Assembly (NCBI GenBank): GCA_016218585.1
Contig: JACRDK010000006.1
Location: forward strand, 1,823 to 65,822
DNA from: Candidatus Doudnabacteria bacterium
GTDB lineage: Bacteria > Patescibacteriota > Doudnabacteria > UBA920
Length of the DNA stretch: 64,000 bases
Reading direction: 5' to 3'
Shown here: positions 2,704 to 14,871 of the stretch, piece by piece
How the letters are laid out: each line of letters begins with the position of its first letter
How positions within the stretch are numbered: the first letter of the stretch is position 1
Notes under the pieces: model-generated
Seen by the model: the letters and a program-made list of their open reading frames with translations, nothing else
Told to the model about the DNA's origin: nothing
The model's database searches: none
Translations under genes and position numbers: made by a program

Positions 2704-2779
2704 GCCGGCTTAGCTCATCTGGTAGAGCAGCGGTATCGTAAACCGCAGGTGGTCGGTTCAAGTCCGACAGCCGGCTCCA
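2704..2779 (+). tRNA. tRNA-Thr (anticodon CGT)
   Basis: Cloverleaf GCCGGCT...AGCCGGC+T+CCA. Anticodon loop ATCGTAA. T-loop GGTTCAAGTCC. Confidence 0.8.
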
Positions 2780-2796
2780 TATTTAACTGGCTGAAC

Positions 2797-2814
2797 AAAC
2801 CACAGGTGGTTTTA
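2797..2814 (+). terminator. hairpin aaaccacAGGtggtttt after tRNA-Thr
   Basis: Short GC/AT stem followed by T-run. Confidence 0.35.
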
Positions 2815-2852
2815 TAAATCACTAAGCTAGGGTTATATCTGCAAAAAAATAT

Positions 2853-3461
2853 ATGAATTTCTTTCCTAAATCAGCAAAAAAAGTTTTTCAAGGAATAATT
2901 TTTGACGTATATCAGTGGCCGCAAAAAATGTTTGACGGTTCAGTTGCAACTTTTGAGCGAGTTATTAGGCAGGGAACAGTGGTAATAATTCCAACTGTAG
3001 GAAACAAAGTTGTAATGGTTAGGCAAAAGCAGCCCGGCACAGACTGGTATTACGATCTCCCTAGCGGCAGAATGGATAAAAAAGGGGAAAGCCCAAAAAA
3101 CGCCGCCTTGCGTGAACTTTTGGAAGAAACCGGCCTTAAACCAAAAACTATTAAACTTTGGAAGACTTACAGCCCGAGCGGCAAAGTTGTCCAAAAGGTT
3201 TACTTCTTTGTTGCCCAAGATTGCCAGAAGGTTGCTGAGCAAAAGCTTGATCCAGGGGAAAAAATTACAGTTGAATACAAAACTTTTGACGAGTTTTTAA
3301 AGCTTACCGATAATGAGAAGTGTTTTTTGGGGCCATTAATGATAGATGCGCTGCTTGCCAGAATCCACAGGCAAAACTACAAATATTTGAAGGACTCTTT
3401 CTTTAAATCTTGGAAAACAGCCCCAAAGTTCCCAAAAAACGGGCCAAAGAGTAATTGGTAG
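2853..3461 (+). CDS. NUDIX hydrolase
   Basis: Nudix box GESPKNAALRELLEETGL. Confidence 0.8.
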   Translation: MNFFPKSAKKVFQGIIFDVYQWPQKMFDGSVATFERVIRQGTVVIIPTVGNKVVMVRQKQPGTDWYYDLPSGRMDKKGESPKNAALRELLEETGLKPKTIKLWKTYSPSGKVVQKVYFFVAQDCQKVAEQKLDPGEKITVEYKTFDEFLKLTDNEKCFLGPLMIDALLARIHRQNYKYLKDSFFKSWKTAPKFPKNGPKSNW

Positions 3462-3533
3462 CAATTTGTCAAGAGCCCTTCCTTTGGCGACCCTTGACTA
3501 AAAGCCCTATTTTATATATTCTAAACGCGCTAA

Positions 3534-3794
3534 ATGCAAAATTTTCCTGAAGTGCCGGAGAAAAAACCGGAAAAAAGCAAACAACAAAAAGCAGGCATGT
3601 TGCTGGTTGAAGCCGGCACCGAATTTGCCGTTATGATAGGCCTGCCTTTAATCGGTTTTATCTTTTTAGGCAAATGGCTTGATACTAAGTATCAACACCG
3701 TTTTTTTGTTGTTATAGGGATATTTTTGGCAATCGCCTTAAGTTCCTACATGATTTATAAAAAAATTCAACAAATTAAAGATTTATTGAAATAA
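3534..3794 (+). CDS. AtpZ/AtpI-like small membrane protein at head of atp operon
   Basis: 86 aa, two predicted TM helices, position immediately upstream of atpB. Confidence 0.45.
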   Translation: MQNFPEVPEKKPEKSKQQKAGMLLVEAGTEFAVMIGLPLIGFIFLGKWLDTKYQHRFFVVIGIFLAIALSSYMIYKKIQQIKDLLK

Positions 3795-4657
3795 TGTTAT
3801 TTTTACCCCCACTTAAAGCAGAAATACTATTCCAGATCGCAGGATTTCCCATTACTAACGCAATGGTAAATTCAATTTTGGCAACTGTATTGTTGGCAAT
3901 TTTTGCTTTCTTTTTAAACAAAGGGGTTAAAAAATACTACCCCAAAGGAAAAGCTCCTAAGGGTGTTTTGAATTTTTTTGAAGCAATTTTGGAATTTTTG
4001 CTCGGATATATTGATGGAGTTACCAAAGACAGAAAAAAAAGCTTAAAGTTCCTGCCGATTGTCGGCGGCTTGTTCCTGTTTATTTTAATCTCCAACTGGA
4101 TGGGACTACTTCCGGGCACGGGATCAATTGGTTTTTGGCATGGCGAAGAATTAGTGCCGTTGCTGCGGCCGGCTAATACCGATTTAAATATGACTTTGTC
4201 TATGGCCGTATTTGCGGTAATTTTGTCACACGTTTTTGGAGTGTTTACAATAGGCTTCTTTAAGTACGCCAACAAGTTTATAAAGCTTGGCGATTTGTAT
4301 CACGCTGTAGCCAGTTTGAACCCAATGAAAATGATGGTTGCCTTTATAGAATTTTTCGTTGGTTTAATTGAAATCTTCTCCGAGGGCGCGAAGATGGTTT
4401 CTTTGTCCTTGAGACTTTTCGGTAATATTTTTGCCGGTGAAGTTTTGCTCACGGTTATTGGTTCCTTAATTTCAGGCTATGGCGCATTTTTTATTCCTTT
4501 GCCGTTTATGGCTCTAGAATTAATAGTGGGAGTTGTTCAAGCTACCGTTTTTTCCATGCTTACTTTGGTTTATTTAACCATAGCCACAACCCCTGTTACA
4601 GACCACGCCGAAACGCATCATGTTGAAGCGGCGGAAGATCAAACTCCAACGGTATAA
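3794..4657 (+). CDS. atpB: F0F1 ATP synthase subunit a
   Basis: Conserved LRLFGNIFAGE...motif and polytopic membrane profile. Confidence 0.9.
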   Translation: MLFLPPLKAEILFQIAGFPITNAMVNSILATVLLAIFAFFLNKGVKKYYPKGKAPKGVLNFFEAILEFLLGYIDGVTKDRKKSLKFLPIVGGLFLFILISNWMGLLPGTGSIGFWHGEELVPLLRPANTDLNMTLSMAVFAVILSHVFGVFTIGFFKYANKFIKLGDLYHAVASLNPMKMMVAFIEFFVGLIEIFSEGAKMVSLSLRLFGNIFAGEVLLTVIGSLISGYGAFFIPLPFMALELIVGVVQATVFSMLTLVYLTIATTPVTDHAETHHVEAAEDQTPTV

Positions 4658-4823
4658 ATGCGAATCTACAAATGCCTATTGAACTAAATCAGTAGCCATC
4701 CGTAGATCCGGATTTAATTTACAAATCTTGATCGGAAAATAATTCATCATTCACTTCCAGGCGACGTTAAACAAATTTCAAAAAAATTGTCGACCAAAAA
4801 GTGAACAAGAAAGGGTTTATACT

Positions 4824-5042
4824 ATGGAAGCAGAAGCAATAACAGTATTGGCGAAAGCCGCAACTATCGCAATCGGCGGTATTGCCCCAGCCATTGCAAT
4901 TGGTAAAACTGCCAGCAAAGCTATGGAATCCATTGGCCGCAATCCGGAAAGCGCCGACAAATTGTTCGTCCCGCTGCTCTTGGGTATGGCTTTTGCCGAA
5001 GCTATCGCTATTTACGCGTTAGTCGTCACTTTCACACTTTAG
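4824..5042 (+). CDS. atpE: F0F1 ATP synthase subunit c
   Basis: 72-aa two-helix proteolipid, GxGxGxG-like AIGGIAPAIAIG and conserved acidic residue in helix 2. Confidence 0.9.
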   Translation: MEAEAITVLAKAATIAIGGIAPAIAIGKTASKAMESIGRNPESADKLFVPLLLGMAFAEAIAIYALVVTFTL

Positions 5043-5084
5043 TTTTAGATAAGTGGGTGGGATTCGTCCTGCCCATCAATTTAC

Positions 5085-5200
5085 AACTTAACTCGATCCG
5101 AATGTTTCGAATTATATCCGAATGCCCCGAATGGGAGCATTAGGATAACCTGCCTACCGGCAGGCAGGTTCGATGGCATTCGTAGATTAGAATCGTATTT
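5085..5200. repeat. CCGAAT/ATTCGG-word repeat element containing the 20-bp palindrome CCTGCCTACCGGCAGGCAGG (5149-5168)
   Basis: Related copies at 30244-30295 and 62985-63050. Palindrome copies at 27713-27732, 28731-28750, 53061-53080. Confidence 0.55.
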
Positions 5201-5202
5201 TT

Positions 5203-5757
5203 ATGAACTTACTTGATATTATTATTCCAATTGCCCACGCAGCGGAAGAACCGGCTGTTAAAGAAGGCGGCGTTGCCGTTTTAGGCATTAATTTAAAACT
5301 TTTCATAGCCCAACTAGTAAACTTTGCGGTAGTTTTGGGAATTTTGTGGAAATTTGTTTTCACCCCGGTTGCTAAACAGCTTCAGGCCAGAACAGAAAAA
5401 ATTGAAAAAGCAATGGCCGATGCCACCACCACCGAAAAAGAAAAACAGGAATTTGCGGTTTGGAAACAACAAGAAATTGCTAAAGTAAAAACAGAAGCCG
5501 GCAGCATTATTAGCAGCGCTCAAGCGGATGCCGGAAAAGTTAAGGAAGATTTGCTTAAACAGGCTAAAGAAGAACAGCAAAAGTTAATTGAACAGGGTAA
5601 GAAACAGATTGAACAGGAAAAAGCCCAAGCCTTACAGGCGGCAAAATCTGAATTGGCAGACATTATTACCACAGCAACAGAGAAGATACTTAGGGAAAAG
5701 TTAACTGGCGATAAGGACCAAAAACTTATCAAGGATTCTCTTAAAGATATTAAATAA
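5203..5757 (+). CDS. atpF: F0F1 ATP synthase subunit b
   Basis: N-terminal TM helix plus long charged coiled-coil, operon position. Confidence 0.8.
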   Translation: MNLLDIIIPIAHAAEEPAVKEGGVAVLGINLKLFIAQLVNFAVVLGILWKFVFTPVAKQLQARTEKIEKAMADATTTEKEKQEFAVWKQQEIAKVKTEAGSIISSAQADAGKVKEDLLKQAKEEQQKLIEQGKKQIEQEKAQALQAAKSELADIITTATEKILREKLTGDKDQKLIKDSLKDIK

Positions 5758-5764
5758 GTTTGTA

Positions 5765-5895
5765 AAATTAACCTAATTTCTAATTATTCTAAGTGCCCTA
5801 AACAAATTCCAAGCTCCAAACCTCAAACTTTAGGCATTAAACATTAAGAATTATTTAGAATAATTAGGTCAATTAGACTAATTAGAATAATTTAT
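5765..5895. repeat. ~130-bp inverted-repeat (MITE-like) element, copy 1
   Basis: Arms aaattaacctaattNNtaattattYtaagtgcYctaaaYaaa / ttatttagRataattaggtcaattagaMtaattaRaataattta are conserved with 10973-11104; the middle has diverged. Confidence 0.55.
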
Positions 5896-5896
5896 T

Positions 5897-6289
5897 ATGA
5901 AGTTCTCCTCCCAACAATACGCCCAAGCTCTTTACGACGCGGTTCACGAAACGAGCTCAAAAGACCACGATGTGGTTTTAGACAATTTTGTGAAGATTCT
6001 TGCCCAAGCCGGGGATTTAAATAAATATCCGGAGATTGAAAAAGAATATCACTTGCTGGAAATGAAAGAAAAGGGGATTAGCAGCGCGGAAGTTACGGTA
6101 GCTAAAGACATAGAAATTAACTCAGCGCTGATTGGCCAACTAAATGAGATTATCGGCAACAAAGTTGAAGTGAAAAAGAAAGTGGATGAAGGAATTGTTG
6201 GCGGAGTTGTGGTAAGAGTCGACGACACGCTAATAGACGCAAGCATAAAAACTCAGCTAGAAAGTTTAAATTCCGAATTAAAATCATAA
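5897..6289 (+). CDS. atpH: F0F1 ATP synthase subunit delta (short, 130 aa)
   Basis: Operon position between b and alpha. C-terminal VVGGVVVRVDDTLIDASI matches the delta C-terminal region. Confidence 0.7.
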   Translation: MKFSSQQYAQALYDAVHETSSKDHDVVLDNFVKILAQAGDLNKYPEIEKEYHLLEMKEKGISSAEVTVAKDIEINSALIGQLNEIIGNKVEVKKKVDEGIVGGVVVRVDDTLIDASIKTQLESLNSELKS

Positions 6290-6293
6290 ATTT

Positions 6294-6551
6294 ATGACTT
6301 CACCAGAAAAGGGTTCGTCTCCAGAATTTTCAGAACTTATTCCGGGTACACCTGTAAGAATAAAGGGTACTAGTGAACACCATATAAACCACGAATTTTT
6401 GCTTAATGGGATTACGGGTGTAGTTGTTGAGGTAAAGAATGACAAAGTTTTTGTCGCTTACAGAATACCAGGTGATTCAATACGAAGAGATAAAGCGCAA
6501 GAAACAATTCAACCTTTTGATCGCAGCGAAATTGAAGAAATTATTTCATAA
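6294..6551 (+). CDS. hypothetical protein inserted between atpH and atpA
   Basis: 85-aa ORF, tightly packed (5 nt after atpH stop). No recognised domain. Confidence 0.45.
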   Translation: MTSPEKGSSPEFSELIPGTPVRIKGTSEHHINHEFLLNGITGVVVEVKNDKVFVAYRIPGDSIRRDKAQETIQPFDRSEIEEIIS

Positions 6552-6689
6552 ATCTTATATCTTAAATCCTAAACGACAATCATTAATTATTAAAATATAG
6601 TTGTCGTCCTGAGCGAAGCGAAGGATCCCTTAATAAAGAGATTCCTCACTGCGTTCGGAATGACGCCGAGGATATTAATAAAAAATTTT

Positions 6690-8186
6690 ATGGCTCAAAA
6701 TATTGTAGAACAATTGAAAACTAAAATAACCGCCTTTCAACCGGGTGCGAAGGTTGAAAAAGTTGGCACGGTTTTGGAAGTTGGCGACGGCGTAGCTCGC
6801 GTTAGCGGCCTTACTCAGGTTGCCAGCATGGAAATGTTGGATTTTGGCAACGAAACTTTTGGCGTGGCGCTGAACTTAGAAGAAAACTTAATCGGTAGCA
6901 TTATTTTAGGCGACTATTTGCAAATTAAGGTTGGCGACACTGTTCGCGCCACCGGCAAAATTCTTTCTGTTCCGGTTGGTGAAAACTTAATTGGCAGAAC
7001 TGTCGGCGCATTGGGAAACCCGAAAGACGGCAAAGGCGCCATTGAAGCCAAGGCTTTTTATCCTGTAGAAAAAATTGCTCCCGGAGTTATTACCCGCCAA
7101 GGCGTAAGAGAGCCGGTGCAAACCGGAATTAAAGCCATTGACGCTCTTATCCCTATTGGCAGAGGCCAGCGTGAGCTTATAATTGGCGACAGACAGACCG
7201 GAAAGACCGCGGTAGCCATAGATGCCATCATCAACCAAAAAGGCCAGAATATGACCTGTATTTACGTTGCTATTGGGCAAAAAGAAAGCAAGGTTGCAAA
7301 AATTGTGGCCGAATTGGAAAAAAATGGCGCAATGGAATACACGATAGTTGTTTCCGCTTCCGCTTCTGAGCCGGCAGCATTGTCTTACATTGCTCCTTAC
7401 GCGGCAACCGCTATGGGCGAATATTTTATGGATCAGGGAAAAGACGTTTTGGTTGTATACGATGATTTGTCCAAACAAGCCGTAGCTTACCGTGAAATTT
7501 CTTTGCTCCTCCGCAGACCGCCGGGAAGAGAAGCTTATCCCGGAGATGTGTTCTATCTCCACTCACGCTTGCTGGAACGCGCTGCTAAATTGAATCCTGA
7601 TTTTGGGGGTGGTTCATTAACTGCTTTGCCAATTATTGAAACTCAAGCCGGAGATATTTCCGCTTACATTCCGACCAATGTTATTTCCATTACCGACGGG
7701 CAGATCTTTTTAGAAACAGATTTGTTTTATAAAGGCGTGCGCCCGGCTTTAAATGTTGGGTTCTCCGTGTCCCGCGTAGGAAGCGCGGCCCAAACCAAGG
7801 CAATGAAAAAAGTTGCCGGTAAATTAAAATTATCCTTGGCGCAATTCCGTGAATTGGAAGCCTTTGCCCAATTTGGATCTGACTTGGATGAAAACACAAA
7901 GCGTACTTTAGACTTAGGACGCAGAATGACAGAAATTTTAAAGCAGCCGCAATACCAGCCTTATTCCTTGGAAAAACAAGTTACTATTATGTATGCGGTT
8001 AACAACGGCTTATTCAATGAAGTTCCAGTAGAAAAAATGCCGGAGACTGAAAAAGCTTTTCACAAATATATGGAAGTTCAGGGCAAAGATGTCTTAAAAG
8101 CCATCCGTGAGACCAAAGAGCTTACCGAAGACACCGAGAACAAGCTGAAAGAAGCAATCAGCAACTTTTTGCAAACAGTAAAGTAA
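6690..8186 (+). CDS. atpA: F0F1 ATP synthase subunit alpha
   Basis: Walker A GDRQTGKT and alpha signature. Start set at the internal ATG (MAQNIVEQ), 30 nt downstream of the ORF-track start. Confidence 0.9.
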
Positions 8187-8266
8187 ATGACAAGATTGAC
8201 CAACAATGCCCTGCATAAAATCATGTCAATAATTTAAATCTTATTTAATCTTGTTCAATAGCCATT

Positions 8267-9142
8267 ATGCCCGGAATAAAAGAATTAAAAAACCGAATAA
8301 AAAGCATTGGTAGCACCCGTAAAATTACCCGTGCGATGCAAATGGTTTCCGCTGCCAAAATGCGCAAAGCCCAAAATGCAGCTCTAAACAGCCGCGTCTA
8401 TTCTGATTTAGCCTGGGAATTAATCCACAATTTGGCGCAAAAAACCCATTTAGAAAACCCTCTCCTGCAAGTTTTTCCAGAGGCAACAAAAACCGGGATA
8501 ATTGTTATTTCTACCAACAAAGGTTACGTAGGAAGTTTTAATACAAACCTGGCTAATAAGATAAAAGAAACGGAAGGCGTAGTAGAAAATGTAAATGCCG
8601 AACTGTTTGTGATGGGTAAAAAAATTAAAGAATACGCTGTCCGCTTAAACAAGAATTTGGCGGCAGATTTTCCAAAAAGCGACTCACTGGCCACGGTTGA
8701 AAGCATTTATCCGCTGGCAAAATTGGTAAGCGATCTTTACAAGACAGGGGAGTATAAATTTATTTCTATTGTCTTCAATAAATTTATTTCCACCATAAAC
8801 CAGAAGCCGGTAGCCAGACAATTATTGCCTTTTGCCGAAAGCTACATAAAAGATTCCCATTTTGTTGCCCCAAAAAATCCTCCCACGGAATATTTGTTTG
8901 AACCGGACCCTCATTTAGTTTTAGACAACCTTTTACCGAGAATTATTGAAAGCCAAATTTACCAGGCAATTCTGGAATCCGATGCCTCTGAACATTCCGC
9001 CCGTATGGTTACGATGAAAAACGCAACTGAAGCCGCTGAAGACTTAATTAGCGATTACACATTAACTTATAATCAGTTAAGACAGAATAAAATAACAACT
9101 GAGCTGGCGGAAATTACCGCCGGTAAAATTGCACTGGAGTAA
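8267..9142 (+). CDS. atpG: F0F1 ATP synthase subunit gamma
   Basis: N-terminal IKSIGSTRKITRAMQMVSAAKMRKAQ and C-terminal TAEL..I..G conserved helices. Confidence 0.85.
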   Translation: MPGIKELKNRIKSIGSTRKITRAMQMVSAAKMRKAQNAALNSRVYSDLAWELIHNLAQKTHLENPLLQVFPEATKTGIIVISTNKGYVGSFNTNLANKIKETEGVVENVNAELFVMGKKIKEYAVRLNKNLAADFPKSDSLATVESIYPLAKLVSDLYKTGEYKFISIVFNKFISTINQKPVARQLLPFAESYIKDSHFVAPKNPPTEYLFEPDPHLVLDNLLPRIIESQIYQAILESDASEHSARMVTMKNATEAAEDLISDYTLTYNQLRQNKITTELAEITAGKIALE

Positions 9143-12474: not shown

Positions 12475-12552
12475 ATGGCTACAAAGAAAAAAGCGAAGAA
12501 AAAAGTCGCCAAAAAGAAGACCACAAAAAAGTCTTCTAAGAAGCGCGCTTAA
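12475..12552 (+). CDS. 25-aa lysine-rich micro-ORF (MATKKKAKKKVAKKKTTKKSSKKRA)
   Basis: GGGAG SD-like 10 nt upstream, followed by a terminator hairpin; below the ORF-track size cut-off. Confidence 0.3.
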   Translation: MATKKKAKKKVAKKKTTKKSSKKRA

Positions 12553-12577
12553 TCTTCCAAGCTCTAAAAAGAGCAGC

Positions 12578-12616
12578 AAAAATCATCCTCAAAACTAGGA
12601 TGATTTTTGTTTTTAG
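12578..12616 (+). terminator. rho-independent terminator (aatcatcct/aggatgatt + T-run)
   Basis: 9-bp stem, 7-nt loop, T-run. Confidence 0.5.
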
Positions 12617-12635
12617 AATGCCCAAGCAGTATCTT

Positions 12636-12664
12636 GCCAAATTTCAAAATATTAAGTATACTAT
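12636..12664 (+). promoter_or_regulatory. sigma70-like promoter for tRNA cluster (TTGCCA-17-TACTAT)
   Basis: -35 TTGCCA at 12636-12641, 17-nt spacer, -10-like hexamer ending ~15 nt before tRNA-fMet. Confidence 0.4.
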
Positions 12665-12679
12665 ATGGAGTTTGCATAT

Positions 12680-12755
12680 CGCGGGATAGAGCAATTGGCA
12701 GCTCGCAAGGCTCATAACCTTGAGGTTCCCGGTTCGAGTCCGGGTCCCGCAACCA
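12680..12755 (+). tRNA. initiator tRNA-fMet (CAT)
   Basis: C1·A72 mismatch, anticodon loop CTCATAA. Near-identical acceptor/T-arm to E. coli tRNAfMet (…TCCCGCAACCA). Confidence 0.8.
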
Positions 12756-12818
12756 AGCTAGCACTGGAGAGTATCAAGTTTTAACTTGGTGAAAAACCAT
12801 AAAATCGTGACAGATTTT

Positions 12819-12930: not shown

Positions 12931-13011
12931 GTGGCAAGTTACAAGTTTATCAAGAATATAAAGTTCCTAGTACTTGATAAACCTTATAACTTTTTACCTT
13001 ACAACTTATAC

Positions 13012-13084
13012 GGGACCGTAGCTCAATTGGTTACCCGCCCGAACGTACCGTTCGGTACGGGCGGGGAGCACTCGCCTGTCACGC
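13012..13084 (+). pseudogene. truncated 5' copy of tRNA-Asp (acceptor through anticodon loop) with a 32-nt GC hairpin insertion in the D-loop
   Basis: 13012-13033 and 13066-13084 are identical to 13334-13374 of the intact tRNA-Asp. Inserted cccgcccgaacgtaccgttcggtacgggcggg at 13034-13065. No T-arm follows. Confidence 0.7.
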
Positions 13085-13097
13085 TTAAAGTTAAATT

Positions 13098-13356
13098 ATG
13101 TATACTGTATACATATTAAAAGATGGCTTAGGAAATCTATATAAAGGTTTTACTAATGACTTAGAAAGGAGATTTAAGGAACACAGGCAAGGTAGAACTA
13201 AAACAACTAAAAAAAATGGAGAGTCTCGAAATAATTTATACTGAGAATTTAAATTCGAGAATTGAGGCAAGAAAAAGAGAAAAGTATTTAAAATCAGCCG
13301 CAGGAAGAAGATTCCTGAAATCAATAGGTATATGGGACCGTAGCTCAATTGGTTAG
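13098..13356 (+). pseudogene. small GIY-YIG (COG2827/YhbQ-like) nuclease gene interrupted by a frameshift in an A8 run
   Basis: N-terminal part MYTVYILKDGLGNLYKGFTNDLERRFKEHRQG matches the GIY-YIG motif. After a +1 shift at A8 (13209-13216) the frame continues ...LEIIYTENLNSRIEARKREKYLKSAAGRRFLKS, ending inside tRNA-Asp. Confidence 0.6.
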
Positions 13357-13410
13357 AGCACTCGCCTGTCACGCGAGAGGTTACGGGTTCGAGCCCCGCC
13401 GGTCCCGCCA
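13334..13410 (+). tRNA. tRNA-Asp (GTC)
   Basis: GGGACCG...CGGTCCC+G+CCA, anticodon loop CTGTCAC, T-loop GGTTCGAGCCC. Confidence 0.85.
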
Positions 13411-13412
13411 TT

Positions 13413-13441
13413 AAAAACCACCAATTATATTGGTGGTTTTT
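13413..13441 (+). terminator. terminator aaaaaccaccaatTATattggtggttttt
   Basis: 13-bp stem flanked by A- and T-runs (bidirectional). Confidence 0.55.
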
Positions 13442-13515
13442 AATTATACCCAATGAGGCTCGAATAAAAGGCAAAAAGTGTTATAATTTAAAAGTAATAT
13501 TAACAAAATAAAAAC

Positions 13516-14426: not shown

Positions 14427-14490
14427 ATACTTAAAAATGTTCAAGGCCGGACAACGAGGAGTTGTCCGGCCTAAAGTAGCAACGCAGATG

Positions 14491-14871
14491 CTAACCAACA
14501 TACCTGGGCTTACGGTCCGCAACCTTAAAACAGGCAGACCATTCCGACGCGCCTTTCCGCTCATGGAAACCGCCGCCATCCAGCTCGGCATCGCCCAACA
14601 CCAGTAGAATCTGCCGCACGTGAAGGTTATACAAATCCATTGCCCGATAAAGCTCTTTGGTCTTTGGATTGATTGGTTTCGGAGATTTTAGCATCCTTTG
14701 GCCTTTCTGATCCAAAGTTCCTTCAAAAAATGTCTGGACAAACGGAGTGCCAGGACCGTTTACCTGTTGGTATACTATCCTAATTTTACTCACGTGTCCG
14801 AGAAGCTTCCTAAGCCTGTTCTTCTTGAGCCTTTTTTTCTTCTCTTCTGCCGTTTCCGTTTTCACCTTCAT
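14491..14871 (-). CDS. hypothetical basic protein (GC-rich islet)
   Basis: Start at MKVKTET preceded by strong SD AAAGGGAGGAG and extended -10 TGGTATAAT. Local GC clearly above the window average. Confidence 0.45.
   Translation of the reverse strand: MKVKTETAEEKKKRLKKNRLRKLLGHVSKIRIVYQQVNGPGTPFVQTFFEGTLDQKGQRMLKSPKPINPKTKELYRAMDLYNLHVRQILLVLGDAELDGGGFHERKGASEWSACFKVADRKPRYVG

Follow-up and report, generated by a model that had tools for sequence, protein, structure and literature searches.

Phage T4 encodes free-standing GIY-YIG homing endonucleases, the Seg proteins, among which SegB is located in the T4 tRNA gene cluster (PMC2330249). The locus described here, found in a 64-kb stretch of DNA from a Candidatus Doudnabacteria bacterium (hereafter, the window), resembles the Seg systems in that a GIY-YIG gene sits among or beside tRNA genes and is present or absent between related genomes. 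The Seg genes are thought to spread via break-induced gene conversion with flanking tRNA sequence, a route that may also operate here. However, whereas Seg proteins exceed 200 aa and contain a DNA-binding domain, the protein of this locus is a core of ~80 aa that is nearer to Slx1 and UPF0213; both a Pfam profile search and the AF2 model of the window protein reveal the catalytic core alone, with no DNA-binding module able to read a long target. Measured against the hallmarks of homing endonucleases, the locus thus displays presence/absence polymorphism at orthologous sites and lacks a module for a long target. Moreover, duplication of the target tRNA, overlap between the ORF and a tRNA, and a palindromic insertion are all absent in T4 and all present here, and the host is a cellular Patescibacteria genome instead of a phage.

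A second group to be considered is formed by the stand-alone GIY-YIG proteins of UPF0213/COG2827 (1YWL, 1ZG2), which belong to the Slx1 cluster of the GIY-YIG superfamily (PMC1564403). Size, single-domain architecture, and the best sequence and fold matches relate the window protein to this group, whereas tRNA fusion, tRNA duplication and hairpins are not among its described features, and neither a function nor a genomic behaviour has been described for it. On the side of the hairpin, the REP/RAYT and IS200/IS605 systems provide examples of imperfect DNA hairpins recognized by a dedicated nuclease (PMC3733652). Like these, the hairpins of the present loci are short, GC-rich, imperfect palindromes with a conserved irregularity, occur in either orientation, and have one gene adjacent to some of the copies. 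However, REP/RAYT and IS200/IS605 depend on an HUH Y1 transposase, while the gene that accompanies the present hairpins is of the GIY-YIG type and no HUH gene was found recurring nearby. In addition, hairpin copy number appears low here (one in the 64-kb window), and the copies concentrate in redundant tRNA fragments.

Rickettsia palindromic elements (RPEs) and yeast mitochondrial GC clusters are miniature palindromes that are tolerated in-frame in protein-coding genes and also in RNA genes, and insertions of the yeast GC-cluster/RPE type are GC-rich in an AT-rich genome. To our knowledge, no mobilizing enzyme has been recognized for either of them. The hairpin described here belongs to a different sequence family and is linked to a candidate nuclease. 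Integrative elements that target tRNA genes are kilobases in length, rely on tyrosine or serine recombinases and duplicate the tRNA 3' part. The present cassette is similar in that a tRNA gene is interrupted and a functional tRNA is maintained with sequence provided by the element, but it duplicates the 5' part or the whole tRNA, carries no recombinase, and amounts to an insert of ~0.3 kb. Finally, group I introns of Patescibacteria share with the cassette both the phylum and the tRNA genes as home, with tRNA-Asp among their hosts. Nevertheless, Rfam detected no ribozyme or intron at the window locus, the interrupted tRNA copy lacks the T-arm and the 3' acceptor strand and, hence, cannot be spliced into a tRNA, and the hairpin is bi-orientational; moreover, the paper on insertions in Patescibacteria tRNA genes makes no mention of GIY-YIG genes or hairpins. 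The segment studied here is one copy of a widespread Patescibacteria cassette for which no published description was found, neither of the nuclease–tRNA architecture nor of the hairpin sequence.

The features of the locus are listed in Table 1. The intact tRNA-Asp, called by ARAGORN and matching the Rfam tRNA model with 66.8 bits, agrees with the gene proposed by an earlier reading of the DNA (the sequence-only reading), which had also placed a copy of the tRNA 5' half about 250 bp upstream, identical save for a 32-nt hairpin in the D-loop. This second claim is equally confirmed: the half-copy matches the intact gene at 41/41 nt, with 249 nt from its end to the intact tRNA and a start-to-start distance of 322 nt. 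Beyond nt 41, the likeness to tRNA-Asp weakens, the second part of the fragment being 86% identical over 28 nt. The segment formed by the first 22 nt is also conserved at the homologous loci L001 and L051. No tRNA-Asp 3' fragment was detected downstream within the window, Rfam returned no match for the half tRNA or the hairpin, and a promoter scan of the spacer upstream of the fragment gave no consensus promoter.

Table 1. Features of the tRNA-Asp locus in the window (positions counted from the first letter of the window).
Feature	Position	Strand	Remark
Spacer between tRNA-Met(CAT) copy 2 and tRNA-Asp fragment	12931..13011	+	within the 403 nt absent from the empty-site relative
Leftover tRNA-Asp 5' fragment, nt 1-22 (acceptor 5' strand, D-stem, D-loop)	13012..13033	+	22/22 identical to 13334-13355
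GC-rich palindromic mini-insertion, 32 nt, in the D-loop (TA^G)	13034..13065	.	unique in the window
Rest of the tRNA-Asp fragment	13066..13093	+	nt 23-41 exact (19/19, 13066-13084), then degenerate to ~nt 50 (~13093)
Predicted minimal GIY-YIG (UPF0213/Slx1-like) nuclease gene	13098..13356	+	85 aa after removing one A
A8 homopolymer with 1-nt insertion splitting the ORF	13209..13216	+	from alignment with L001 and L051
Intact tRNA-Asp(GTC)	13334..13410	+	first 23 nt overlap the ORF 3' end
Perfect 16-nt inverted repeat, terminator-like, ending the tRNA transcription unit	13410..13444	.	from repeat search

Between the two tRNA copies, two ORF pieces (13098-13244 and 13216-13356) fuse into a protein of 85 aa when one A of the A8 run is deleted. 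The joined ORF matches PF01541 with 49.3 bits (cut-off 22.6; E = 6e-13), and its closest solved relatives in a phmmer search are the UPF0213 proteins 1YWL (E = 4e-5) and 1ZG2 (E = 9e-5), at ~30% identity, whereby the COG2827-type GIY-YIG domain that had been recognized in the spacer is corroborated; no NCBIfam model exists for the ORF. At exactly the A8 site, L001 and L051 are one base shorter, and their ORF of 85 aa is intact, which bears out the proposed +1 shift. The corrected frame, which has no stop of its own, does run into the intact tRNA, as had been noted, and ends at the TAG of 13354-13356, i.e., at tRNA nt 21-23. The protein contains a single Pfam domain (its homologues range from 77 to 115 aa) and is 85% identical to the intact homologue P0001. 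The AF2 model (pLDDT 92) exhibits the order strand-strand-helix-strand-helix-helix, and Foldseek ranks 1ZG2 (UPF0213) first, followed by Slx1 (6SEH, 7CQ3; TMq 0.62-0.67), ahead of I-TevI and UvrC N-terminal domains. Both the sequence matches and the model point to a predicted member of the GIY-YIG superfamily of the minimal, UPF0213/Slx1-like type. Residues Y5, Y15, G17, R25, H29 and E61 are invariant across 48 homologues and all present in the window ORF, and by analogy they would be catalytic-type residues. With dN/dS of ~0.07 relative to L001 and L051, the ORF is under purifying selection.

Among ~100 members, the window ORF is the sole one split into two frames; because the split is confined to this copy, a programmed frameshift was rejected as a family trait. 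The extra A might mean that the gene was inactivated very recently, that the base was misread during sequencing, or that polymerase slippage compensates for the defect to a small degree. Homopolymers such as A8 are prone to errors and the DNA stems from a metagenome-assembled genome (MAG), so it might be argued that the half tRNA arose from a chimeric repeat collapse and the frameshift from a homopolymer error. However, the anatomy of the locus was found again in more than 80 independent assemblies, in which duplication, hairpin and ORF recur across different projects and assemblers. Thus, an artefact is extremely improbable as an explanation of the locus, while the single extra A alone could be an error.

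The family is large, with 362 matching protein clusters and, in species-representative genomes, at least 446 genomic loci that encode a relative, almost all of these loci in Patescibacteria. In 86 of 104 ORF hits, a same-strand tRNA lies within 60 nt of the ORF 3' end, and these tRNAs represent 10 isotypes (Asp 19, Ala 19, Val 14, Thr 14, Phe 5, Ile 4, Arg 4, Lys 3, Met 3 and His 1), whereas no ORF was found at tRNA genes for Gly, Leu, Ser or Glu among the 104 hits. At the loci examined, the ORF usually runs into an intact tRNA and a second, disrupted tRNA copy bears GC-rich palindromic insertions. The upstream copy begins at nt 1-4 and stops at nt 15-50 in 57 of 76 loci, and the ATG is located 0-30 nt past it in most cases. 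In L050, hairpins occupy the tRNA copy adjacent to the ORF and the next copy is intact, and in L231 the ORF lies downstream of an intact tRNA; therefore, the layout is not rigid. Several cassette copies can be found per genome, e.g., L015 and L039 on one contig, or L022, L025 and L054 from one MAG, and tRNA isotypes are interspersed on the ORF tree. The possibility that the ORF stop and the hairpin always mark one and the same insertion junction (TA^G) was rejected, since many loci have the stop at nt 8-10 and the hairpin at nt 20-22; the stop is simply whichever TAG of the tRNA is in frame. Viral contigs contained no ORF relatives and, thus, no transfer vector is evident.

An empty-site comparison bears on mobility. 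In L227, from a related Doudnabacteria genome, and in L228, tRNA-Met2 is followed 1 nt further on by tRNA-Asp with no element between them, so that an empty site exists; the universal occupation which the sequence-only reading had named as an argument against mobility is thereby contradicted. The tRNA-Asp of this empty site in L227 is identical to that of the window at 76/77 positions, and L227 lacks 403 nt of the window, among them the spacer 12931-13011. Occupation of the neighbouring tRNA-Met1 and tRNA-Met2 sites by a second GIY-YIG subfamily varies among L051, L231 and L235, tRNA-Met1 being empty in the window and occupied in L051. These sites, together with the 10 tRNA isotypes and the multiple copies per genome, favour the proposal of the sequence-only reading that a mobile or homing element directed at tRNA genes left its footprint here after regenerating its target.

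Its other proposal, a decaying integration site, found no support. tRNA genes are classic integration sites, and in L051 a large serine recombinase abuts the tRNA-Asp 3' end; both points would speak for an integrase-mediated island or prophage in tRNA-Asp that had decayed to an att-like repeat. Nevertheless, the repeat corresponds to the 5' part of the tRNA and not to its 3' part; the "island" measures ~250 nt and always contains the same GIY-YIG ORF; no integrase lies beside the window copy, whose 403-nt insert holds the GIY-YIG ORF only; and the recombinase of L051 lies on the far side of the tRNA, with no counterpart in the window. The layout is also repeated at hundreds of tRNAs, and an integrase scar has a negligible chance of being the right explanation.

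The tRNA copies themselves also carry traces of exchange. In L235 (GCCGGGG versus GGCGGGA), L079, L083, L018 and L061, the upstream fragment and the ORF-linked tRNA have different acceptor stems, which suggests that the cassette of some loci arrives with a complete tRNA of its own. Cassettes seem to substitute imported tRNA alleles for resident ones, a process by which tRNA genes could be replaced horizontally and which may act as an addiction mechanism. Moreover, when the window is compared with L001, both tRNA copies show the same difference at position 28 (T versus C); this common change indicates concerted evolution, with recombination between the copies. L051 additionally contains hairpin and tRNA debris devoid of an ORF (~2000-2060 and 2178-2255).

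Taken as a whole, we consider the segment 12931-13410 to be a selfish cassette of nuclease gene and tRNA that uses recombination at tRNA genes to spread, a reading to which we assign a probability of roughly 60%. The cassette consists of a gene of ~80 aa of the Slx1/UPF0213 type lodged in a tRNA gene, in the order promoter-proximal 5' fragment, ORF, and complete, functional tRNA. Its spread would proceed via recombination stimulated by the putative nuclease, i.e., a homing-like gene conversion, in which the tRNA fragment and the intact tRNA could act as built-in homology arms. These arms would enable the cassette to enter the cognate tRNA gene in genomes with other flanks, and the D-arm shared by tRNAs may allow an occasional switch to another tRNA. 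Host viability would be kept by the intact copy. The upstream, promoter-proximal fragment suggests that the ORF is placed between the promoter and the tRNA, a position in which the nuclease gene would be transcribed and hard to delete. The hairpin, in turn, probably abolishes the site in the D-arm and divides the 41-nt direct repeat into blocks of 22 and 19 nt, an interruption that would make precise excision harder. However, the intact tRNA at an occupied locus keeps the D-arm of the disrupted copy unaltered and, therefore, immunity of the type "insertion destroys target" cannot explain the survival of the functional copy. If the selfish cassette is real, part of UPF0213/COG2827, a very common "hypothetical" bacterial nuclease, would acquire a biological role associated with tRNA genes, and a second class of tRNA-gene parasite would exist beside group I introns in the reduced genomes of Patescibacteria.

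The strong purifying selection, the conservation of the catalytic-type residues in 48/48 aligned homologues, and the fact that UPF0213 comprises widespread single-domain proteins of unknown function (PMC1564403) would likewise suit a host-beneficial or domesticated small nuclease that is co-transcribed with tRNAs and serves, e.g., in repair or maintenance of tRNA genes, the tRNA pieces and hairpins being incidental recombination scars. In the same direction, the tRNA-Met/Met/Asp position is occupied in the divergent lineages L004, L006, L008 and L011, and occupation of the tRNA-Asp site in many distant lineages would also fit long vertical retention. Nonetheless, a beneficial gene is hard to reconcile with presence/absence polymorphism at orthologous sites in close relatives, multiple copies per genome at different tRNAs, foreign-type tRNA alleles linked to the ORF, the frameshifted window copy, and the ORF-less debris in L051, and we regard it as improbable.

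The 32-mer inserted in the window, CCCGCCCGAACGTACCGTTCGGTACGGGCGGG, interrupts the D-loop between ...GGTTA and GAGC. The 64-kb window contains a single occurrence, 0 chance matches being expected, and for the window a dispersed repeat was accordingly rejected. Its predicted fold (-12 kcal/mol, z = -2.8) comprises a GC stem of 7-8 bp, a 4-nt GAAC bulge, an inner stem and a 4-nt loop, and 31/32 positions are identical in L001 and L051 despite saturated synonymous sites in the ORF. Across the hairpin family, 94.5% of cells are paired and 17 changed on both sides versus 6.2 in shuffles (0/500 reached this value), and the GAAC bulge is conserved; an alternative inner helix (GAACGAC/GTCGTTC) obtained no covariation support. 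Members occur in both orientations and in many contexts. Within tRNAs, the precise insertion points are nt 9, nt 13-15 and nt 20-22, with TA^G flanks at tRNA sites and only a weak bias elsewhere. At GIY-YIG/tRNA loci, palindromic insertions colonize almost every redundant tRNA copy, and the hairpin itself belongs to a distinct and widespread family of such GC-rich palindromic mini-insertions.

The position of the hairpins relative to the nuclease gene raises the question of whether the latter moves them. A hairpin lies no more than 120 nt upstream of the ORF in 70 of 84 loci, most of the others having one in the downstream duplicate, and 94 of the 127 hairpins of GIY-YIG loci fall within this distance, with the single hairpin of the window also adjoining its ORF. 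In L079, L010 and L083, the ORF-tRNA unit has the same hairpin on either side, located in each half of the resident tRNA. In an unbiased hairpin search, GIY-YIG was the only protein family recurring nearby; the conserved bulge, the covarying stem and both orientations suggest recognition at the DNA level, and the predicted fold most resembles that of Slx1, which is a structure-selective nuclease (PMC6902002). All this would be consistent with a system centred on the hairpin, in which the GIY-YIG protein mobilizes palindromic hairpins as an autonomous/non-autonomous pair comparable to RAYT/REP, the hairpin-bounded ORF-plus-tRNA being the autonomous element that enters hairpin sites in the tRNA D-loop and replaces the resident tRNA. 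On the other hand, in ~85-90% of the hairpin loci from the unbiased search the contig lacks a GIY-YIG gene, and most of these hairpins are not near a tRNA either, so that the link between hairpin and nuclease could be indirect, while type-B GIY-YIG loci carry quite different mini-hairpins of 14-16 nt. Furthermore, we know of no transposition chemistry among GIY-YIG enzymes. Mobilization of the hairpins by the nuclease is thus unlikely as the explanation of the locus, albeit worth pursuing as a testable hypothesis on the movement of miniature palindromic insertions.

A broader formulation, which we put forward tentatively, holds that GIY-YIG genes and bulged GC hairpins may constitute a new class of mobile element, in which a Slx1-like, structure-specific nuclease moves miniature palindromes and the autonomous form is a hairpin-bounded "nuclease + tRNA" cassette. 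Were this the case, hairpin insertion would knock out the resident tRNA and the copy of the cassette would substitute for it, rendering the host dependent on the cassette, i.e., an addiction module built on an essential tRNA. For miniature palindromic insertions such as RPEs and GC clusters, a first candidate enzyme would thereby be available.

The loci are also of practical relevance for annotation, since they account for pseudo-tRNA fragments and for missed or duplicated tRNAs in Patescibacteria MAGs, and odd N- or C-terminal extensions of small ORFs correspond to translated hairpin or tRNA sequence. The search also yielded 23 hairpin matches in viral contigs, which were uninformative, and metagenome contigs mostly contain one hairpin copy. 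Hairpin length is a multiple of 3 in 55 of 103 cases, and ~45% of the hairpins lie inside long ORFs.

The intact tRNA-Asp(GTC) gene, detected by ARAGORN and Rfam, is preceded by a copy of its own 5' half, in which the first 22 nt and the following 19 nt are preserved without mismatch and are separated by the 32-mer CCCGCCCGAACGTACCGTTCGGTACGGGCGGG, so that both the half-copy and the hairpin insertion described in the sequence-only reading are borne out. The 32-mer is found once in the 64-kb window and, folded as single-stranded DNA, reaches -12 kcal/mol (z = -2.8). Between the tRNA copies lie two overlapping ORFs that fuse into an 85-aa protein when one A is removed from an A8 run; the joined protein matches the GIY-YIG domain profile PF01541 (E = 6e-13), and the corrected frame, as that reading had also proposed, runs into the intact tRNA, where it ends at a TAG within the D-loop. 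The protein comprises only the catalytic core, with Y5, Y15, G17, R25, H29 and E61 invariant among 48 homologues, and its AF2 model (pLDDT 92) most resembles UPF0213 proteins and the Slx1 nuclease domain, and is less similar to I-TevI and UvrC. This agrees with the Slx1-cluster assignment published for stand-alone prokaryotic GIY-YIG domains (PMC1564403). Slx1 is structure-selective (PMC6902002), and the window-type enzyme may recognise structures in DNA instead of a long sequence. The intact tRNA-Asp itself carries a non-Watson-Crick A49-C65 pair at the base of the T-stem, flagged by Rfam and kept in the related loci L001, L051 and L227.

Coordinates of features in the window and in the compared loci
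Sequence	Feature	Position
Window	25-aa lysine-rich ORF (MATKKKAKKKVAKKKTTKKSSKKRA)	12475-12552
Window	tRNA-Met1 region, without insert	12553-12760
Window	Terminator-like hairpin	12577-12609
Window	Promoter-like site for tRNA-Met1	12634-12662
Window	tRNA-Asp fragment, first 22 nt	13012-13033
Window	tRNA-Asp fragment, following 19 nt	13066-13084
Window	First ORF	13098-13244
Window	A8 run	13209-13216
Window	Second ORF	13216-13356
Window	Intact tRNA-Asp(GTC)	13334-13410
Window	TAG stop of corrected ORF	13354-13356
Window	GC-rich stretch	14440-14650
Window	Perfect hairpin in GC-rich stretch	14444-14472
L001	ORF-less tRNA-Met2 fragment	1-66
L051	Divergent GIY-YIG gene at tRNA-Met1	1480-1870
L051	ORF-less tRNA-Met2 fragments	1990-2070, 2178-2255
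L051	Large serine recombinase, minus strand	2755-4326
L052	Tandemly duplicated tRNA-Arg unit	958-1615
L080	tRNA-Thr(TGT) copy with three hairpins	2800-2965
L095	Long ORF with hairpin inside	6425-8467
L125	Long ORF with hairpin inside	3715-6276
L153	Long ORF with hairpin inside	855-2900
L235, L236	23S_rRNA_IVP domain gene	1639-1983

The closest homologue of the nuclease, P0001 (85 aa), is intact and 85% identical to it, and the P0001 loci (L001 and L002) and the genome locus L051 display the same succession of tRNA-Asp fragment, hairpin, ORF and tRNA-Asp, with the hairpin at the same position and identical at 31 of 32 nt. An artefact is an unlikely account of a layout that recurs in this way. 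Alignment with L001 and L051 shows exactly one additional base in the A-run of the window, which places the frame break where it had first been read. Only the window ORF, among ~100 family members, is split into two frames; this rules out the frameshift as a family feature and indicates that it is recent, an error, or rescued by slippage. The corrected ORF shares 80% nucleotide identity with L001/L051 (dN 0.10, dS 1.29, dN/dS ~0.07) and, therefore, purifying selection acted on the nuclease gene through nearly all of this divergence. Although synonymous sites of the ORF are saturated, the tRNA fragment and hairpin together show just 2 differences in 71 positions, so the hairpin is either constrained or homogenised. 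One of these differences, at tRNA position 28 (T vs C), is changed in fragment and intact tRNA alike and, thus, both copies evolve in concert.

A relative of the window nuclease is encoded at 446 loci recovered by pattern and tblastn searches in one genome per species, and the best 80 of these 446 belong almost entirely to Patescibacteria. Among the ORF hits from the scan and from later-collected loci, 86 of 104 have a same-strand tRNA within 60 nt of their 3' end, while the others lie mostly at contig ends, at N gaps or beside hairpin-disrupted tRNAs. The ORF usually lacks a stop codon of its own and terminates at tRNA U8-A9-G10, at the TAG in GGTTAGAGC, or deeper in the tRNA; nuclease gene and functional tRNA are thereby fused at the tRNA 5' end. 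A further copy of that tRNA lies upstream at 57 of 76 loci, where it begins at nt 1-4 and ends at nt 15-50, and in most loci the ATG follows it after 0-30 nt. Ten isotypes are occupied (Asp, Ala, Val, Thr, Phe, Ile, Arg, Lys, Met and His), and every tRNA gene for Gly, Leu, Ser and Glu in the examined loci is free. In the ORF tree, isotypes are interspersed, with small same-isotype clades, and several genomes bear more than one copy at different tRNAs. At locus L052, the whole unit, comprising tRNA-Arg fragment, hairpin and GIY-YIG ORF, is present twice in tandem ahead of the intact tRNA-Arg.

Orthologous sites were compared along a syntenic segment (ATP synthase, CCA enzyme, tRNA-Met1, tRNA-Met2, tRNA-Asp, RmuC) in relatives whose CCA enzyme is 63-67% identical. 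The window's own CCA-adding enzyme, which is encoded nearby, matches a protein of a Candidatus Doudnabacteria MAG at 100% identity. This is the empty-site comparison called for in the sequence-only reading, and it reveals both gain and loss. In L227/L228, tRNA-Asp, identical to that of the window at 76 of 77 positions, lies 1 nt after tRNA-Met2, versus 403 nt in the window. Conversely, the tRNA-Met1 of L051, identical at 76/76 positions to that of the window, which has no insert, is occupied by a 92-aa GIY-YIG gene (PF01541, E = 1.6e-14), accompanied by a tRNA-Met 5' fragment of its own and by a mini-hairpin of 15 nt (TCCGCCTTAGGCGGA). The second GIY-YIG subfamily is ~40% identical to the window protein. 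The layouts of L050 and L231 indicate that the arrangement is plastic. A domesticated host function, to which the purifying selection on the ORF might point, is unlikely beside such occupied/empty polymorphism.

Occupancy of orthologous tRNA sites
Locus	tRNA-Met1	tRNA-Met2	tRNA-Asp
Window	free	free	occupied (frameshifted ORF)
L227/L228	free	free	free
L233	free	free	free
L235	free	occupied by second GIY-YIG subfamily	free
L231	second-subfamily ORF between intact tRNA-Met1 and its hairpin-bearing 3' fragment	free	free
L051	occupied by second subfamily	hairpin-bearing fragments	occupied by window-type element

In L051 and L001, tRNA-Met2 fragments that lack an ORF and bear further small GC hairpins flank the intact tRNA-Met2 on both sides; these fragments look like scars of lost cassettes. 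In L051, a large serine recombinase of 523 aa, with Resolvase, Recombinase and Zn-ribbon domains, adjoins the 3' end of tRNA-Asp, where synteny with the window stops; it probably represents a separate integrated element using the same tRNA. L235 and L236 contain a 23S_rRNA_IVP (intervening-sequence protein) gene within the ATP synthase operon, missing at that position in the lineage of the window.

Some insertions, at least, came with a whole tRNA of their own, leaving the resident gene divided. In L235, the upstream fragment has a resident-type acceptor (GCCGGGG; GCCGGAG in the window and L227), and the intact tRNA-Met2 linked to the ORF carries GGCGGGA/TCCCGCT. In L079, one resident tRNA-Val is represented by two halves, a 5' fragment upstream (GGGTCCA) and a 3' fragment downstream (TGGACCC), and between them lie the ORF and another tRNA-Val whose acceptor differs; L083, L018 and L061 are similar. 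In the window, fragment and intact tRNA are identical, which fits either within-lineage duplication or later homogenisation.

The window 32-mer belongs to a family of miniature palindromic insertions, which are very strongly concentrated in redundant tRNA copies beside these nuclease genes. A CCCGCCCG...CGGGCGGG hairpin occurs within 120 nt upstream of the ORF at 70 of 84 GIY-YIG loci, and most of the others have a diverged hairpin or one in a second tRNA copy just downstream. Precise insertions mostly follow tRNA nt 20-22, with others after nt 9 and nt 13-15. Hairpins are sometimes doubled or nested, and a number of them sit in the anticodon loop or T-stem. The exact reverse complement of the 32-mer in four loci (L004, L026, L065 and L141) implies that the element is orientation-independent. 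Covariation among 30 distinct 36-mers supports a hairpin in which a GAAC bulge of 4 nt separates a 7-bp GC stem from an inner stem, also of 7 bp, that is capped by a 4-nt loop, with both-side changes in 17 cells versus 6.2 in shuffles (0/500 as high); a competing inner helix received no covariation support. The downstream tRNA-Thr copy of L080 carries three different GC hairpins, in the D-loop, between anticodon nt 35/36 and in the T-stem, position 35/36 having also been reported as an unusual group I intron site in Patescibacteria (PMC13011429).

An unbiased search of metagenome contigs found the hairpin at no fewer than 120 loci (at least 120). Among the matches listed, only ~14 have a GIY-YIG gene, within ~100 nt of the hairpin except at L117, where it is distant, and the others are singletons in varied contexts, ~45% inside long ORFs, one encoding a UvrD-like helicase. 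Hairpin length, among these same matches, is a multiple of three in 55 of 103 and exceeds a multiple of three by one in just 7, which suggests tolerated in-frame insertions. Rickettsia palindromic elements are likewise insertions tolerated in-frame. GIY-YIG is the sole protein family recurring near the listed hairpins, and the main rival explanation holds that the nuclease mobilises hairpins, the hairpin-bounded ORF-tRNA unit being an autonomous element; with so few of the listed hairpins beside such a gene, we regard this as rather improbable.

We favour a selfish, recombination-driven cassette, with a probability of about 0.6. The nuclease would stimulate recombination at tRNA genes, with the tRNA fragment and the intact tRNA as homology arms, so that a copy of the unit could enter the cognate tRNA in a different genome. 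The intact tRNA copy would keep the cell alive and would link the nuclease gene to a transcript that the cell cannot do without. The hairpin would disable the D-arm of the redundant copy, which is the same as that of the intact tRNA-Asp, and, by splitting the direct repeat, hinder precise excision. These particulars (homology arms, tRNA tie and hairpin role) are put forward tentatively.

A selfish nuclease gene at tRNA genes is an already known kind of system, the closest described being the T4 Seg class, notably SegB in a tRNA cluster (PMC2330249). However, the protein here belongs to a different, minimal lineage, and the T4 system lacks the target duplication, ORF-tRNA fusion and palindromic insertions. 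REP/RAYT and IS200/IS605 follow a similar logic, in which a hairpin is served by a dedicated nuclease, although their enzymes are HUH rather than GIY-YIG. Integrative elements regenerate tRNA 3' ends through recombinases, and an integrase scar is an unlikely reading of a locus in which the 5' half of a tRNA is duplicated. A recent survey of Patescibacteria tRNA introns mentions neither GIY-YIG cassettes nor the hairpins, and full-text literature searches for the cassette architecture or hairpin sequence found no description. There is a real possibility that the hairpin-nuclease combination is new.

Elsewhere in the window, a local GC-rich stretch (0.53-0.60 vs ~0.35 in its surroundings) contains a perfect hairpin; it has no Rfam match, and its ORFs on both strands are unconvincing. 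Upstream, the lysine-rich ORF is followed by the terminator-like hairpin and the promoter-like site of tRNA-Met1, and a similar tiny basic ORF is kept at the same position in L051.
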